Of a DNA stretch of 64,000 nucleotides, positions 1,144 through 6,352 are shown piece after piece. A program made the translations under genes and the position numbers. The number at the start of each line of letters is the position of its first letter. The stretch's first letter is position 1. The notes under the pieces were generated by a model. That model did not search any database. It saw nothing but the letters and a program-made list of their open reading frames with translations, and was not told the DNA's origin. Origin of the DNA: a virus (lineage: Duplodnaviria > Caudoviricetes); the IMG/VR virus record IMGVR_UViG_3300028832_000097, positions 106,978 through 170,977 of that record. The stretch is one strand, 5' to 3'.

Positions 1144-1410
1144 TCAGAAACCTCCAATTATCCAACGTTTGTTAGGATCTGCTGCACGATTATCTGAAAG
1201 AACTTGATAGCCGTTGGCTTCAAGTGCATCTTTTAAAGTATCAGGCATCTCTTTAGACCAGACTACAGTATGTGCACCAGTGTTTGCTGCTGTGTTGATC
1301 AAATAAGCAGCTTCCATCTCATATTGATCTTCAATTGCACCATCAGCAACAGTCTTGACAGCACTAGCAAGTTTGAGTTCATGTAATTCATCTTTTGGAA
1401 TAAGGCTCAT
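1144..1410 (-). CDS. Hypothetical protein
   Basis: ORF track; start moved to ATG 1410 after a GGAGG RBS; AACCTT motif at 1445-1450. Confidence 0.65.
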   Translation of the reverse strand: MSLIPKDELHELKLASAVKTVADGAIEDQYEMEAAYLINTAANTGAHTVVWSKEMPDTLKDALEANGYQVLSDNRAADPNKRWIIGGF

Positions 1411-1478
1411 AAATAACCTCCAATTAGAGTTGATATAATTAGTAAAGGTTAAAATTGGAGTTTTCAAATATAAGAAAA

Positions 1479-1630
1479 GCAAGTGTGCTGGAAGCAGCTT
1501 TCACCAATAAGGAGTGCTTCCAGCGGAATACTCAATCGCACTTGCAACGACCGGCTTTCATTTGCAGTTAGCTCGCACCTTACCACTCGACGTTAGTATT
1601 TCATTCCGCCTTTGCGCTACGTGGTATAGG
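1479..1630 (-). ncRNA. Putative structured RNA downstream of tRNA-Leu, ending in a U-tract
   Basis: Stems CCTATACCAC/GTGGTAAGG, GCAAGTG/CACTTGC and GCTGGAAGCA/TGCTTCCAGC, followed by TTTTCTT. Confidence 0.5.
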
Positions 1631-1633
1631 ACT

Positions 1634-1718
1634 TGGTGCGGATGACAGGACTTGAACCTGCACGCCTTGCGGCACGAGAACCTAAATCTCGCATGTCTGC
1701 GAATTCCATCACATCCGC
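1634..1718 (-). tRNA. tRNA-Leu (TAG)
   Basis: GCGGATG/CATCCGC acceptor, anticodon arm CGAGA-TTTAGGT-TCTCG, long variable arm, TTCAAGT T-loop, encoded ACCA. Confidence 0.95.
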
Positions 1719-1725
1719 GTTTAAA

Positions 1726-1925
1726 TCTGCCTACTCCCCACCGGGTTTGCGACAATGCGTAACCTCCGGTGGCTTTCGGCAAGGGCTCAACCCTTTTTGT
1801 CAGAGTTATCAGTCATGTCTCTGAGTTCCCGATAGCTCTAGACTGTATTTCGCAAGCACGGTGTTGACGATGAAGAGCCCAACCTCTTCTGGCAGGATAT
1901 CTCACCCTGGAGTTCCCTTTGTCTC
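1726..1925 (-). ncRNA. Putative multi-hairpin ncRNA with E-loop (AGUA/GAA) motif
   Basis: Stems CAGG/CCTG, GAAGAG/CTCTTC, TCAGAG/CTCTGA, AGGG/CCCT and TGCC-GAAAG-CCACCGG/CCGGTGG-GGAGTA-GGCA; CACCTT motif just upstream (1945-1950). Confidence 0.55.
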
Positions 1926-1980
1926 ATTTATATACCGCAAGTATAAGGTGGGTGGACTGTTGCAACAGTCCAGTGCGGAT

Positions 1981-2075
1981 TGGTACAGGACTACCCTCCC
2001 GTTGCAACGATTAACTCCACACGAACTTGTCTATCGGATTACTCCTGTATCGCTAAGAGTAGAGGTTTGTCCTGT
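1981..2075 (-). ncRNA. tRNA-like RNA with 7-bp acceptor stem plus ACCA but no canonical D/T arms
   Basis: ACAGGAC/GTCCTGT-ACCA closes a multibranch fold (CCTC/GAGG, TACTCT/GGAGTA, CGTT/AACG); begins directly after the CCA of the upstream element. Confidence 0.55.
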
Positions 2076-2172
2076 TGGTGAAGTAGGCAGGAGTTGAACC
2101 TGCAATTCTACAATATGTTTTGATCACATATAACGAGACACATCCGGCGTTTCCCTATTTCGCCACTACTTC
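2076..2172 (-). ncRNA. Pseudo-tRNA / tRNA mimic with intact acceptor, D and T arms and a replaced anticodon arm
   Basis: GAAGTAG/CTACTTC-ACCA, D-arm GCG-AAATAGGGAAA-CGC, T-arm GCAGG-TTCAACT-CCTGC; no canonical anticodon stem, displaced hairpin ATATGT-GATCAAA-ACATAT. Confidence 0.75.
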
Positions 2173-2207
2173 ATGTTGATAATAGTACTTAGGTACATAA
2201 CCAAGGT

Positions 2208-2705
2208 TTACTTCAACCCTAGAAATATAGGTTCAACCAATTTTCTATATTCGTCTACTCCATGATCTATTTTATCTAAGAGCAACGGCATTGTAGCGTC
2301 CTCAATCGCACAACAAATTCTCATGAGCAATTTTGCTGCTTCAGGTGTTACCTCAAATTCTGGATAATTACCTTTACCGTCATGATTGAATTTACCTGAA
2401 CGATTATCCGCTAAGAAGCCATACAACTCTTTCACATAATCGCTATTTGTATCACCCATGAAACAAAATAGGTTGTTGTGTAACATCTCCTTACTAGGTT
2501 TTTTAGTCTTTGGCTTGAGCGTGAAATCGTCTGCTGCTTGAATCCACTTTGCTACAGAAGTTATCCACCCATTGACATCATCTGGTCGAATATCTGAATA
2601 CATGAGAAGTTTGATAATATGTTCAATGATAACACTAGAGTAAGATCTCATAAGAGATCCTGCTCTGTCTTTGTCGGTAGACATAGCTAATATGTATCGT
2701 TTCAT
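2208..2705 (-). CDS. DUF29-like helical protein with MKRYI leader
   Basis: IIEHIIKLL...GWxxSV pattern resembles DUF29; AGGAGG RBS. Confidence 0.5.
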   Translation of the reverse strand: MKRYILAMSTDKDRAGSLMRSYSSVIIEHIIKLLMYSDIRPDDVNGWITSVAKWIQAADDFTLKPKTKKPSKEMLHNNLFCFMGDTNSDYVKELYGFLADNRSGKFNHDGKGNYPEFEVTPEAAKLLMRICCAIEDATMPLLLDKIDHGVDEYRKLVEPIFLGLK

Positions 2706-2724
2706 TTTTACATGCCCTCCTTAT

Positions 2725-2798
2725 TGGTACTAGATTTTTAAGAGAGAACCTAGCAAACTCCTGCAAGTTATGAAGCAACTACCACCTTGCTACGGCCC
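2725..2798 (-). ncRNA. Small RNA ending in an H-type pseudoknot plus ACCA
   Basis: GGAG-TTT-GCTAGGTT-CTCT-CTTAAA-AATCTAGT-ACCA; upstream hairpin GCAAG/CTTGC. Confidence 0.5.
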
Positions 2799-2811
2799 AT
2801 ATTATTTATAT

Positions 2812-2875
2812 AGCACTCCAAACCTCTTAATGAAGAGTAATCCCGTCAGATTGGTTGCATGGCCATCCGAGTGCT
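2812..2875 (-). ncRNA. Putative three-way-junction small RNA
   Basis: Closing stem AGCACTC/GAGTGCT encloses GGAT/ATCT and CTCTT/AAGAG hairpins, directly after the tRNA-Lys CCA. Confidence 0.4.
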
Positions 2876-2877
2876 TA

Positions 2878-2953
2878 TGGTGTTCCAGAGGCGACTCGAA
2901 CGCCCGACCCATTGATTAAAAGTCAATTGCTCTACCGACTGAGCTACTGGAGC
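2878..2953 (-). tRNA. tRNA-Lys (TTT)
   Basis: Canonical cloverleaf, anticodon arm ATTGA-CTTTTAA-TCAAT, TTCGAGT T-loop, ACCA; one C2-A71 mismatch. Confidence 0.95.
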
Positions 2954-3052
2954 ATAAATGCCATTTGTTTTCTTTTCAAAAACTACTGCCGATGGCTCGA
3001 CGGAGAGTAGGTTTTCATCTCTCGTGATCTCCGCAAAGATCACCCGCTATCC

Positions 3053-3129
3053 TGGTCTCCTGGACGGGAGTCGAACCCGTAAAACTCGGATTTTAAATCC
3101 GATACCTATGCCAATTCGGTTACCAGGAG
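3053..3129 (-). tRNA. tRNA-Leu (TAA) with short variable loop
   Basis: CTCCTGG/CCAGGAG-ACCA; anticodon arm TCGGA-TTTAAAA-TCCGA; variable loop only GTTTT. Confidence 0.9.
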
Positions 3130-3238
3130 ATGTAACTGGCTGTAACAGTAAGGGAGAAAGTAGTCCAGAGAACCCTTGCTACGAATTTCACGCAGATCTT
3201 AAGAAAGAAGACACCGTTCATCTACAGGAAGAACGATG

Positions 3239-3312
3239 TGGTCGGAGTGACAGGATTTAAACCTGCGCCCTCATGCTCCCAAAGCACGCGCTATCAGCTG
3301 CGCCACACCCCG
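3239..3312 (-). tRNA. tRNA-Pro (TGG), degenerate
   Basis: CGGGGTG/CACTCCG-ACCA, anticodon arm CGTGC-TTTGGGA-GCATG; T-loop TTTAAAT, D-loop lacks GG. Confidence 0.8.
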
Positions 3313-3316
3313 ATGA

Positions 3317-3470
3317 TTACTACCAAATGACTTTGGCCATTTGTAAACTAATTACTCAATCCTGGTTAGGCTCAGTTCAAGGCAGAGCTTCCAATAACGG
3401 CCTCACTTGTAATCCTTTAATTGAGTGATTACCTAACAGTTCACAAATAACCAGAGTCATCTGGTAGTAA
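3317..3470 (-). ncRNA. Putative ~155-nt RNA with a 32-bp closing stem and possible pseudoknot
   Basis: TTACTACCAGATGACTCTGGTTATTTGTGAAC pairs with GTTTACAAATGGCCAAAGTCATTTGGTAGTAA (4 G-U, 1 mismatch on minus strand); bulge GTTAGG is complementary to loop CCTAAC. Confidence 0.65.
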
Positions 3471-3575
3471 AAATGTCAGCAAACTTTAGAGAACTTTGTA
3501 CTAGTATTATCATACAAGAGAAATGTAAATCTGACATCCAAGTGCTGTTGCTTACTTGGTTTTCTTCTCTTTATG

Positions 3576-3650
3576 TGGTTGACGATGCAGGACTCGAACC
3601 TACAATAGTTGAGTCAAAGTCAACTGTGATAACCGTTTCACTAATCGTCA
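3576..3650 (-). tRNA. tRNA-Gln (TTG)
   Basis: TGACGAT/ATCGTCA-ACCA; anticodon arm GTTGA-CTTTGAC-TCAAC; TTCGAGT T-loop. Confidence 0.95.
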
Positions 3651-3671
3651 GTACATGATGCCTTTCTAAAC

Positions 3672-3862
3672 ATGTATTGAAGATGTACACAATGCAATGA
3701 GATGTGTGGTGTAGGTATCTCTTCTTAGGAGCGTGAATCGCGTTGTCATATCTTCGACTAATACATAAGCTTTCACCGGCAGTTTACGACAGATTAACGT
3801 ATGAACCTGTGTTGCTATATATTTACGGATGAATATTTGAATCGACAGTACGTAAACTTCGG
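3672..3862 (-). ncRNA. Two putative structured RNA domains at the 5' end of the RNA operon
   Basis: AGTTTACG/CGTAAACT closes 3776-3862; long interrupted stem ATGTATT..GAAGATATGACAACGCGAT / ATTGCATTGTGTACATCTTC..AATACAT spans 3672-3766. Confidence 0.45.
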
Positions 3863-3920
3863 AGGGCAAATAATTAACAATAGAATATTAAATTGTCAAG
3901 TTACTGTGTTATACACACTA

Positions 3921-3928
3921 TAACGATT
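3921..3928 (-). promoter_or_regulatory. Phage promoter motif class 1 (AATCGTTA) heading the RNA operon
   Basis: Close matches recur upstream of genes at 6386, 11657, 13589, 16975, 24189, 25059, 28560, 30486, 31067, 35144, 40065, 40852, 41406, 43379, 44294, 46443 and 48638. Confidence 0.75.
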
Positions 3929-3936
3929 CGTAAAAG

Positions 3937-4221
3937 TTAACTATCATTTGATCTACTAAGCATATCTTTTATAGTAGCATTTAAGGTTTCAAACGCCTTA
4001 TTAGTGCCATCATTCCAACCACGTGCATACGCATGGCTTAAAGTTTCTTCCGGATCCATTTCAATGTTGTGAGACATATCAGAATACGCAGTTAATTTTT
4101 GCAAACCGTGCTCGTCAAACACTAAGGAATTAAATCCCTTTACTTTATACAATTTATTCCCATTGTAGTCTAAATACATTTTATCAATTTCAATTATAAA
4201 CTTTTTACCAACGTAACTCAT
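3937..4221 (-). CDS. Hypothetical phage protein
   Basis: ORF track; AGGAGG upstream. Confidence 0.65.
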   Translation of the reverse strand: MSYVGKKFIIEIDKMYLDYNGNKLYKVKGFNSLVFDEHGLQKLTAYSDMSHNIEMDPEETLSHAYARGWNDGTNKAFETLNATIKDMLSRSNDS

Positions 4222-4237
4222 TCAATGTACCTCCTGC

Positions 4238-5353
4238 TTAAAATAGCTTCTTAACTCTTTTTATCTGTGTATCAGGGTTTAGCCCTTTAACACGATTTAC
4301 TCTATTATGAACACGCAACCTCAATGATTCTGAATCTACATGTAGTAGTTTTGCTGCTGACTCAATGCTTTCATACCTAACACCATCAATCTCGATAGGA
4401 ATTACTCTAGGATTATTTTCTGATCTATTACTATTGAGACCAGTTGCCCATGCATGATTTACATTTTCTTGATTAGTGACCCATTCAAGATTTTCTACTC
4501 GATTATCTGTTTTAACTCCATTTTTATGATTAACCTGAGGTTTATTTTCGGGATTAGGTAGGAATGCCATCGCAACTAACCGATGTAAGAATGCATCAAA
4601 TCTTGATTGGCTATCACCAGTTAGTGTTATTCTATGATAACCATCTTGGTCATAATCGGGTTCAAGTACCCTGCCATGAATAGTTATTAAATGATCTCCA
4701 CGTTGTTCCTTTCGAGGACATGTGTAAAATCGACCTAGCGAAGATATCATGTACCTACCTTCGTACCCTTCAACGTATTTCCACTCTTCAGTATCTAATG
4801 TAGGAGGATGTATACCAAGTTTCAGGTTATCTGCTTCATCGTTTGACATATCTCCATCAATATGTGTGATAGGCTCATCTATCCACCCTAAAAATGTGCT
4901 TGCTACTAGCTCCTCAACCCGGTATTCTTTATTATCAAGCATGATCTTGTTACTACAATTTATATTACCTTGCGCAATCTTAAGCAAGCTGTCTTCGGCA
5001 CAAGATTTGATTCTTCCTAAATTAGATACGCTATAATGTTTGAAAATCGGTAACCAAACTTCTCCAGGTAATGATTGTATTTGAGATTCACAGGTTAAAT
5101 TAGATACAGCACAATTGAACCTATCACCATCAACATGATGTAGTTTAATCAATTTTGGATCATATGTTGGATCTACAAATAATTGATATATCAGTACATC
5201 AAGTGTAAATTCTCTGTTACTACCATCTTTACGCAAACTAACTTTACCTGAAGAAGAGACTTTCAGCGGTGTATTCTTTCGCAGATTAATTATCTGCCCA
5301 CAATCTTGAGCAAGATACAATCCTTCATATCCTAGTACAGGTAACTCAATCAT
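4238..5353 (-). CDS. NUMOD4/HNH homing endonuclease with three tandem NUMOD4-HNH units
   Basis: EEWKYVEGYEGRYMISSLGR (NUMOD4); HRLVAMAF...VNHKNGVKTDNRVENLEW (HNH); two degenerate upstream units. Confidence 0.9.
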   Translation of the reverse strand: MIELPVLGYEGLYLAQDCGQIINLRKNTPLKVSSSGKVSLRKDGSNREFTLDVLIYQLFVDPTYDPKLIKLHHVDGDRFNCAVSNLTCESQIQSLPGEVWLPIFKHYSVSNLGRIKSCAEDSLLKIAQGNINCSNKIMLDNKEYRVEELVASTFLGWIDEPITHIDGDMSNDEADNLKLGIHPPTLDTEEWKYVEGYEGRYMISSLGRFYTCPRKEQRGDHLITIHGRVLEPDYDQDGYHRITLTGDSQSRFDAFLHRLVAMAFLPNPENKPQVNHKNGVKTDNRVENLEWVTNQENVNHAWATGLNSNRSENNPRVIPIEIDGVRYESIESAAKLLHVDSESLRLRVHNRVNRVKGLNPDTQIKRVKKLF

Positions 5354-5359
5354 ACTAGA

Positions 5360-6352
5360 TTAAAACAACCTCTTAGTACGCCTTATCTTATTAGGATCAT
5401 ATGCATATTTTGTGCCAATCAGCTTCTGAATACTGTGTATATTGAAAGCAACTCGTGCTGAAGAATCATTTCTAATCTGATCCATTGTTAAATTACACGC
5501 TGCAACTTCTTGCTCAAGAATCTTAACATTATGCTCATCTGCAAGTGAAAAGAAACTCATACTTGACTTATTCCTAGTTGTCCTATCACGATCTGTCACA
5601 GAAATTACACCAAATGTAGGTGAAAGAATTTTACAGTATGCAGCAATGTGTCTGTGACTTATTGAATCCGCGGAATAACAAGGAAGCTTGCTTAACCCTT
5701 CTAACGAAGTATATCCATACAAATGTGTTTTTACATTAGGATTAGACGAAGCATGGATCAAATCTGCACATTCTTTTAGGTAGATGTCCTTCATCGCTAC
5801 GCTGGCGTCATTCGCCGGCGACAACCCTATGTAATCTAAGGGTTCCCCATTTTCATCTGTCCATTCTAACATATCTTTCAACACCTGCATAGACTCTCCA
5901 TAATGGAATACAGGCATAACTTTATGTGGACTCTTAACTTTTGTACGCATATACAAAAAGTTTTCCCAAGATTTCTTTGCAGATTCTACATAATCTTCTG
6001 CAGATTTGGGCTGTCCAAACTTACCTGGAATAGTATCAAGTTGTGCGCACACATCAATATCATCGTCAATACTGTTTATATAATCAATGTATGCATCTTC
6101 CCAGTCTCTGAAGGTTGGCTGTTCAGTGCTCTTCCATCCGGGTAGTTTAGCGTTACCAGTATGTATACTAAACGCACCAGAATCAATAAACAACCATCTG
6201 CAAAATCCTTCATGTTTCCACTTAATAGTTTTAGTAATTGCACTGCGATCTAACTGAGTTATGAGTATATCTAGAGGTTCAAAATCTGGGATACCTACTA
6301 AATAATCATGCATTTGCTGTGTTAATGACCCTGACATTACATATTTTTCCAA
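5360..6352 (-). CDS. dpdA: TGT-fold guanine transglycosylase (DpdA-like, probable 7-deazaguanine DNA modification)
   Basis: FIDSGAFS, QLDxIP, PVFH, THLYG and SADS motifs of the TGT barrel; no CxCxxC zinc site; yhhQ and QueD-like genes in the same window. Confidence 0.7.
   Translation of the reverse strand: MEKYVMSGSLTQQMHDYLVGIPDFEPLDILITQLDRSAITKTIKWKHEGFCRWLFIDSGAFSIHTGNAKLPGWKSTEQPTFRDWEDAYIDYINSIDDDIDVCAQLDTIPGKFGQPKSAEDYVESAKKSWENFLYMRTKVKSPHKVMPVFHYGESMQVLKDMLEWTDENGEPLDYIGLSPANDASVAMKDIYLKECADLIHASSNPNVKTHLYGYTSLEGLSKLPCYSADSISHRHIAAYCKILSPTFGVISVTDRDRTTRNKSSMSFFSLADEHNVKILEQEVAACNLTMDQIRNDSSARVAFNIHSIQKLIGTKYAYDPNKIRRTKRLF

Follow-up and report, generated by a model that had tools for sequence, protein, structure and literature searches.

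A phage tRNA operon with conserved structured RNA modules between its tRNA genes

The stretch analyzed here, which we call the window, comprises 64,000 nucleotides (nt) and is the final 64 kb of a complete 171-kb phage record in IMG/VR (IMGVR_UViG_3300028832_000097, positions 106,978 to 170,977). Its G+C content is about 36%, and nearly all of its genes lie on the minus strand. Positions 1465 to 3899 of the window are one phage transfer RNA (tRNA) operon on that strand, made up of five canonical tRNAs, one aberrant 97-nt tRNA-like gene, an embedded protein gene (open reading frame [ORF] 165), and a noncoding remainder. ARAGORN and Rfam agreed on these six tRNA-type genes, which are all on the minus strand, all have an encoded CCA end, and are the only ones in the complete record. 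This confirms the five tRNAs listed in an initial annotation of the sequence, and its view that the spacers are noncoding also held, as they contain no conserved ORF besides ORF165 at 2208 to 2705. Phage tRNA clusters are usually ascribed to codon usage or to escape from tRNA-cleaving defenses, and the non-tRNA RNAs found in such clusters have, to our knowledge, gone unexplained since species 1 and 2 of phage T4. In this operon, the tRNA strand shows conserved RNA structure, in modules that have sharp limits and that lie in or beside tRNA clusters. From the sequence comparisons described below, we hold with moderate confidence that the operon encodes several independent structured RNAs that are under selection, are released from a precursor, and act in trans. 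The RNAs in question are the following.

3473 to 3559, minus strand: two hairpins (3538 to 3559, and 3473 to 3537 with a 51-nt loop), with compensatory pairs relative to the related contig L063
3317 to 3472, minus strand: rod RNA, 156 nt, identified by folding z-score, covariance model R2, and covariation
2076 to 2172, minus strand: tRNA-like RNA, 97 nt, scoring 38.3 bits with the Rfam tRNA model (threshold, 29 bits)
1981 to 2075, minus strand: CCA-ended unit with a 7-bp terminal stem and ACCA and no T loop
1867 to 1980, minus strand: core RNA, about 115 nt, identified by covariance model R1, covariation, and invariant columns
1725 to 1792, minus strand: loop-E-like hairpin, kept in the related contig L044 and lying directly upstream of tRNA-Leu(UAG)

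The initial annotation had described nearly every spacer as rich in stems. When folding was compared with that of dinucleotide shuffles, only the stretch that holds the rod (3313 to 3480) was exceptional, with a z-score of −6.3. The other spacers ranged from +0.3 to −2.1, which is not beyond chance: 2725 to 2798 (+0.3), 3651 to 3936 (−0.1), 3130 to 3238 (−0.5), 3473 to 3575 (−0.7), 1484 to 1633 (−0.8), 2812 to 2875 (−1.5), 2954 to 3052 (−1.6), 1981 to 2075 (−1.8), and 1725 to 1866 (−2.1). The tRNA-like gene scored −1.9, and the loop-E-like hairpin taken alone scored −0.8. Because folding energy alone was thus mostly no better than chance, the case for structured RNAs rests on comparison with related loci.

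These relatives were gathered by several routes. L044 was found through ORF165 (85% protein identity), and L063 (85% identity) and the near-identical L064 were found through an upstream ORF of 94 amino acids. Exact-pattern scans using blocks conserved between the window and L044 yielded L053, L055, L056, L061, and L062, and L085 was added by scanning for the tRNA-like gene's 3′ end. A natural variant of the region (the run variant) and its recombination joints were read from contigs of three DNA sequencing runs aligned to the region. The public runs that match this DNA are bovine gut metagenomes, and no RNA run is among those listed. The neighboring DpdA-like gene was also tried as a guide and was rejected; it led to 24 relatives, which have their tRNA clusters elsewhere and have no spacers in common with the window. 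A blastn search of 50,697 GenBank phages matched the tRNAs only.

None of the known families named in the initial annotation was recovered. In a search of the window with Rfam 15, which includes GOLLD, ROOL, 6S, transfer-messenger RNA (tmRNA), RNase P, YrlA, and self-cleaving ribozymes, only tRNA models matched; relaxing the E value to 10 over positions 1300 to 4100 produced nothing plausible in the spacers, and at E values up to 1 no non-tRNA family appeared in the homologous loci L053, L061, and L062. ARAGORN called no tmRNA in the window or the related loci. The elements supported below therefore match no Rfam 15 family and no GenBank phage, and the same is true of the T4 RNAs rnaC and rnaD: on the T4 tRNA region, with filters off, the core model reached at most 7.2 bits and the rod model at most 11.2 bits.

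The core RNA is present in eight otherwise dissimilar metagenomic phage contigs. Model R1, built on seven of these sequences, finds those seven at 105 to 132 bits and the eighth, more distant one at 81 bits, and it has no other scoring site in about 570 kb of related phage loci. In this RNA, a helix of 5 bp closes a structure that has three hairpins and long junctions of invariant sequence. Its alignment contains 49 invariant columns, mostly in the junctions, and the substitutions fall mostly in hairpin loops and in stems, where pairing is kept. In the alignment, 91% of pair cells are paired, whereas sliding the partners reduces this to about 43%; doubly changed pairs number 11, compared to 2 to 6 when slid, and none of 500 shuffles reached the observed covariation score. 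The G·U pairs of the core fit the tRNA strand only. Covariation among homologs, which the initial annotation had named as a check on its proposal, was thus found here, and it was found again in the rod.

All eight copies of the core lie on the tRNA strand, and seven are within or at the edge of a tRNA cluster. In the window and the five further copies whose surroundings were read, the core lies between or within a few hundred nucleotides of tRNA or tRNA-like genes; the L085 copy has tRNA-Trp about 1 kb upstream of it. The 117-nt gap between tRNA-Arg and tRNA-Asp in L062 is occupied exactly, from end to end, by the core, consistent with its release when the tRNAs are processed. The run variant has the core joined directly to the leader of tRNA-Leu(UAG), and its joints at 1870 and 1978 are the ends of the core model. 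When the core-bearing loci were compared with the first 12 kb of the window, no proteins were in common and no partner protein was found next to the core, so that conservation of the core is not simple synteny.

This distribution bears on the idea that the modules are mobile DNA cassettes, such as homing-endonuclease targets or recombination sites, whose similarity reflects recent horizontal transfer and not RNA function. The array is indeed a mosaic, with module limits that coincide with tRNA or CCA ends and with sharp recombination joints in natural variants; an HNH endonuclease gene lies just upstream (4238 to 5353), and the core occurs in phages with unrelated neighboring proteins. However, transfer of DNA by itself would not account for core substitutions that are nonrandom, that keep pairing, and that leave the junctions fixed, nor for G·U pairs tolerated on one strand only and an orientation that is always that of the tRNAs. 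We therefore regard a purely DNA-level explanation as very improbable.

Three further lines of inquiry concerned the core. A small peptide was considered, as the frame at 1838 to 1927 is the only ORF there, and was rejected because the homologs have no start codon. Bacteria and archaea were scanned with one representative genome for each of 185,579 species: a first 20-mer core pattern had no match, and a second pattern gave 19 stretches, all of which scored at most 20 bits with R1 and were dismissed as chance look-alikes of a promoter plus ribosome-binding site. Lastly, in L053 (7440 to 7560), L056 (4640 to 4760, minus strand), and L061 (2410 to 2580), the core has a conserved extension after it, in which helices covary. 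Its strings GAGGAAAGUAGGCUCC, GUAACAGUC, and GCAAGCCGAUAUG resemble RNase P RNA, but no RNase P model matched, and we discarded that assignment; in L061 the extension can be read as one more expanded tRNA mimic, T arm included.

The rod RNA differs from the other elements in that its fold stands out energetically as well. Its 5′ and 3′ ends form a duplex of about 33 bp that encloses a domain of about 90 nt, in which a loop sequence, GUUAGGU, can pair with CCUAAC in a bulge; the pairing has one compensatory change in L044 and is probably a pseudoknot. The L044 counterpart keeps the architecture with a different stem sequence (z-score of −5.4). Model R2, built on the window and L044, finds L063, which served as an independent test sequence, at 150 bits, and scores range from 150 to 199 bits across the three. 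In these sequences, all 138 pair cells are standard, and 12 pairs are doubly changed, compared to 0 or 1 when slid.

Strand preference in the rod agrees with that in the core. With the rod model, the minus strand reaches 174.6 bits and the reverse strand 44 bits, and the whole spacer (3313 to 3575) has a minimum free energy of −79.2 kcal/mol on the minus strand versus −69.0 kcal/mol on the plus strand. Six substitutions at paired rod positions are listed for the run variant; each of them keeps the pair on the minus strand, and four of the six change A-U to G·U and would be mismatches if read on the other strand. This strand-specific G·U pattern identifies the minus strand as the RNA strand and bears out the earlier observation that the stems favor the strand of the tRNAs.

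A scan of IMG/VR with the inner motif of the rod gave no further member, and the rod family therefore appears narrow. Its shape invites comparison with YrlA, a Y RNA of bacteria and phages with a tRNA-like domain, one member of which is cut by RNase P and given a CCA end (PMC4201824). A long terminal stem closes the module in both. We rejected the rod as a Y RNA on three grounds: the inner domain has no T arm (by inspection, and the tRNA model is silent there), there is no Rfam match, and no TROVE gene accompanies it. The complete 171-kb record has no Ro60/TROVE gene (PF05731), and controls were detected in the same search.

A third kind of element resembles tRNA itself. The tRNA-like gene at 2076 to 2172 shares with tRNA-Leu a 7-bp acceptor stem (here GAAGUAG), an A73-CCA end, a Leu-type D arm, and a T arm, all intact, but 39 nt replace the 18-nt anticodon arm, and its relatives have 60 to 90 nt there. 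No 5-bp anticodon stem with a 7-nt loop is present at the canonical position, where ARAGORN calls a four-base anticodon. An intron was considered and rejected; read in this way, ARAGORN returns Glu(CUC) for the window, Met(CAU) for the L044 homolog, and nothing for three others. L044, L053 (three copies), L055, and L056 carry relatives of 118 to 150 nt in which the acceptor is either identical or covarying, and the 3′-end pattern also matches L085 and L086 (3′ ends only); an exact-pattern scan with the T arm plus acceptor had no matches. The T stem and acceptor covary among the seven homologs, which have no anticodon in common. Judged by these homologs, 2076 to 2172 is a member of a recurrent family of putative Leu-type tRNA mimics and not a broken gene. 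An extra Leu-type mimic, with the acceptor UCACUAG and no encoded CCA, lies just upstream of the rod in L063 (1304 to 1427), which indicates that mimics are mobile within arrays.

The adjacent CCA-ended unit is preserved as a self-contained cassette in two runs from a separate study, where it has 4 differences in 99 nt. Its joints are at 1978/1980 and 2078; on one side of it 524 nt are inserted, and on the other side the tRNA-like gene and ORF165 are replaced. The 7-bp stem structure is a prediction, and no diverged homolog was found. In L044 (2185 to 2320) and L053 (7226 to 7355), the tRNA-like gene is followed by a different conserved element of about 140 nt with covarying hairpins, the position of which is held in the window by the CCA-ended unit.

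The initial annotation had proposed that its small RNAs might be decoys or sponges against host defenses, which for these elements would mean that the Leu-type mimics and the CCA-ended unit soak up tRNA-targeting nucleases or sensors. The mimics do keep the acceptor, D, and T arms in the absence of a constant anticodon, they accompany the core in six of eight contigs, and the operon carries tRNA-Lys(UUU), a known nuclease target. On the other hand, anticodon nucleases recognize the anticodon loop, which is the very part that the mimics lack or vary. Nothing ties the core or the rod to any defense system, and no defense or antidefense gene was identified nearby. A decoy role is quite improbable, and the functional guess goes beyond the evidence.

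Two smaller elements are also supported by compensatory change. In the hairpin pair at 3473 to 3559, the two stems contain two and three compensatory pairs between the window and L063. In the 51-nt loop of the larger hairpin (3473 to 3537), 50 nt are 100% identical in the two sequences, and the stem has diverged. This block was considered as a repeated phage promoter and as part of a small peptide (frame 3457 to 3537); the first was rejected because the block is unique in the genome, and the second was rejected because all three codon positions are unchanged throughout the 50 nt, in contrast to the diverging flanks. The loop-E-like hairpin has an internal loop of GAAAG facing GGAGUA and recurs in L044 with two compensatory pairs. 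A joint in the run variant from 1724 to 1870 skips this hairpin together with the insert at 1793 to 1866, and L044 is without the insert. The unit delimited as 1726 to 1925 in the initial annotation therefore had to be divided, since it mixed the loop-E-like hairpin (1725 to 1792), the optional insert, and the 3′ half of the core module (1867 to 1980).

As the initial annotation had noted, several units start right after a CCA end: 2075 for the tRNA-like gene, 1980 for the CCA-ended unit, and 3238 for tRNA-Pro. Such positions could also suit elements that act only in cis, as processing or insulating scaffolds that prevent tRNA misfolding, guide RNase P, E, or III and attenuation, and are then degraded. 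Elements that abut tRNA ends, hairpins with U/C tracts that come after CCA ends, and several spacers that are dispensable in relatives would all be expected of scaffolds, and a rod of 33 bp is the kind of signal that RNase III classically processes, for example in rRNA operons. Yet an insulator or nuclease site would not need 49 invariant, mostly unpaired core nucleotides or a 50-nt loop that remains identical above a diverged stem. Moreover, the core adjoins different tRNAs in different phages, and in L055 there is no tRNA in the 300 nt between the core and the next ORF. For these reasons, we consider an exclusively cis-acting role rather unlikely.

The initial annotation had counted about ten small RNAs. 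Conserved, structured non-tRNA RNAs are indeed present on the tRNA strand; the comparison supports about five modules, and the larger number exceeds what the evidence carries. Of the remaining spacers, 2954 to 3052 is absent from relatives, and 3651 to 3869, 2706 to 2877, and 1483 to 1633 are better read as a leader, a 5′ untranslated region (5′ UTR), and a trailer with a terminator.

The closest precedent is the tRNA operon of T4, in which rnaC (species 1, 139 nt) and rnaD (species 2, 119 nt) are non-tRNA RNAs encoded on the tRNA strand and directly following a tRNA. The elements described here have the same placement, within a phage tRNA operon, on the tRNA strand, and adjoining tRNAs. The T4 operon also holds a homing-endonuclease gene, segB, comparable to ORF165 here, and rnaC has a canonical T arm in a large 139-nt body, like the expanded mimics. 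In contrast to T4, where there are two such RNAs, both at the end of the operon, there are at least four or five here, and they are interleaved with the tRNAs. We know of no function for rnaC or rnaD. ROOL, another RNA to be compared, is about 580 nt long. ROOL was discovered in rumen samples, and it and GOLLD, which is often longer than 800 nt, are RNAs of phages and prophages with unknown functions that often lie near tRNA islands (PMC12286853). Both are large, whereas the elements in the window are 65 to 156 nt, are modular, and have no Rfam 15 match. In our view, the RNA families of this locus are real, new, and fairly numerous, and they belong to a known kind, namely, small RNAs in a phage tRNA operon.

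If the operon works as we propose, the RNAs would be transcribed with the tRNAs in one or two long precursors. RNase P would cut the 5′ end of each tRNA and tRNA-like element, 3′ ends would be trimmed back to the encoded CCA, and the 33-bp duplex of the rod, an obvious RNase III substrate, would allow its release. The operon would supply high expression and exact ends, and the RNAs would then act in trans. For the core, the most likely target would be some host macromolecule that is itself conserved, such as part of the translation or RNA-processing machinery, since its unpaired junctions are invariant in phages without neighboring proteins in common. The mimics, in turn, would engage enzymes that recognize tRNA. 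A bolder version, which we consider unlikely, is that the core is a new RNA class of phage tRNA arrays, either catalytic (e.g., self-cleaving) or a high-affinity binder of host translation or RNA-processing machinery, and that it travels with the Leu-type mimics lacking an anticodon as a mobile multi-RNA island for host takeover.

Several points weigh against the proposal that these are separate RNAs acting in trans. The thermodynamic z-score is ordinary for the core (−0.3) and for most units, and the 5-bp closing helix of the core, being invariant, is predicted only. With eight sequences for the core and three for the rod, the covariation statistics are indicative and not of R-scape grade. 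That the RNAs are discrete and stable is inferred, as are their ends and abundance, the CCA-ended unit could be a decaying tRNA gene, and function is a guess. Even so, the locus supplies compact, well-delimited, and strongly conserved RNAs, together with covariance models, module boundaries, and natural variants, and the RNAs are small enough for direct biochemistry. If the core does bind a conserved host machine, rumen and gut phages would have a new, RNA-based form of host takeover; should the elements serve only as processing scaffolds, they would still provide a clean example of how phages build a polycistronic tRNA precursor.

The other features of the operon, from its promoter end, are as follows.

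3870 to 3899, minus strand: sigma-70-like promoter ahead of the operon (TTGACA, 18 nt, AATTAT), with 10 of 12 consensus matches
3651 to 3869, minus strand: leader with conserved islands that pair over long range
3576 to 3650, minus strand: tRNA-Gln(UUG), CCA encoded, 63.2 bits
3239 to 3312, minus strand: tRNA-Pro(UGG), called by ARAGORN and Rfam
3130 to 3238, minus strand: spacer with a hairpin and U/C tract, partially conserved in L044 and L063
3053 to 3129, minus strand: 77-nt tRNA with anticodon UAA and a short variable arm, 60 bits
2954 to 3052, minus strand: optional spacer with a terminator-like hairpin and a promoter-like site, absent or replaced in relatives
2878 to 2953, minus strand: tRNA-Lys(UUU), 66.3 bits
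2706 to 2877, minus strand: 5′ UTR of ORF165 with a Shine-Dalgarno site, holding the units 2725 to 2798 and 2812 to 2875 of the initial annotation
2208 to 2705, minus strand: ORF165, an embedded gene for a protein of 165 amino acids that belongs to no known family
1793 to 1866, minus strand: optional hairpin insert, missing in L044 and skipped in the run variant
1634 to 1718, minus strand: tRNA-Leu(UAG) with a long variable arm, 48 bits
1465 to 1633, minus strand: 3′ trailer with a 38-nt hairpin (1487 to 1524) and a U-rich tract

Apart from the modules discussed above, the spacers look like routine components of an operon: a promoter and leader, hairpins of the attenuator or terminator type, the 5′ UTR of ORF165, and optional inserts. 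The promoter is a consensus match only, in a sequence where the count of such sites is not above that in shuffles, and L063 and the run variant both keep the region. The first helix of the leader, in which CCGAAGU pairs with ACUGNCGG, is found again in L044 and L062, closing no more than a tetraloop there, and in each case it lies downstream of a promoter-like AT-rich box. Compensatory changes in the leader are few, and the case for long-range pairing is weak to moderate. In the spacer that precedes tRNA-Pro in coordinate order (3130 to 3238), the hairpin and U/C tract at 3200 to 3238 come directly after the tRNA-Pro CCA and may be an attenuator or a processing site; a 22-nt block (3174 to 3195) is identical in L044 and differs by one base in L063, and the 3′ half of the spacer is poorly conserved. 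The optional spacer at 2954 to 3052 contains the terminator-like hairpin at 2988 to 3001 and the promoter-like site at 2951 to 2979; in L063, 6 nt separate the flanking tRNAs, and in L044 and the run variant the spacer is replaced. About 87% of the bases in the ORF165 5′ UTR are kept in one run variant, and homologs of ORF165 elsewhere mostly have no tRNA context. At the far end, the trailer hairpin with its U-rich tract (1465 to 1524) is likely the operon terminator.

The operon lies downstream of the replication module of the window, which includes a family-A DNA polymerase, a clamp-loader-like ATPase, a queuine-tRNA-ribosyltransferase-like gene, and an HNH endonuclease. The HNH homing-endonuclease gene is directly upstream of the operon and adjoins the queuine-tRNA-ribosyltransferase-like (DpdA-type) gene at 5360 to 6352, the presence of which suggests that the phage DNA carries a 7-deazaguanine modification.

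The tRNA with anticodon UAA has the 77-nt short-arm form in the window, in L044 (117 to 193), and in L063 (1792 to 1868), and the usual 85-nt form is found in L058 and L059, two related phages. The window and L044 versions have wholly different acceptor stems. A UAA anticodon reads a Leu codon, and bacterial tRNA-Leu usually has a long variable arm; given the short arm and the divergent acceptor stems, the anticodon alone does not fix the amino acid identity of this tRNA. A family of ORFs of 68 to 74 amino acids, absent from the window, lies within the tRNA arrays of L044 (223 to 429), L058 (10507 to 10728), and L059 (9430 to 9654). In L063, the sequence at 1874 to 1994 matches tRNA-Lys over the 5′ 35 nt only and is unrelated from there to the contig end, and tRNA-Lys may have been interrupted or replaced in this phage.

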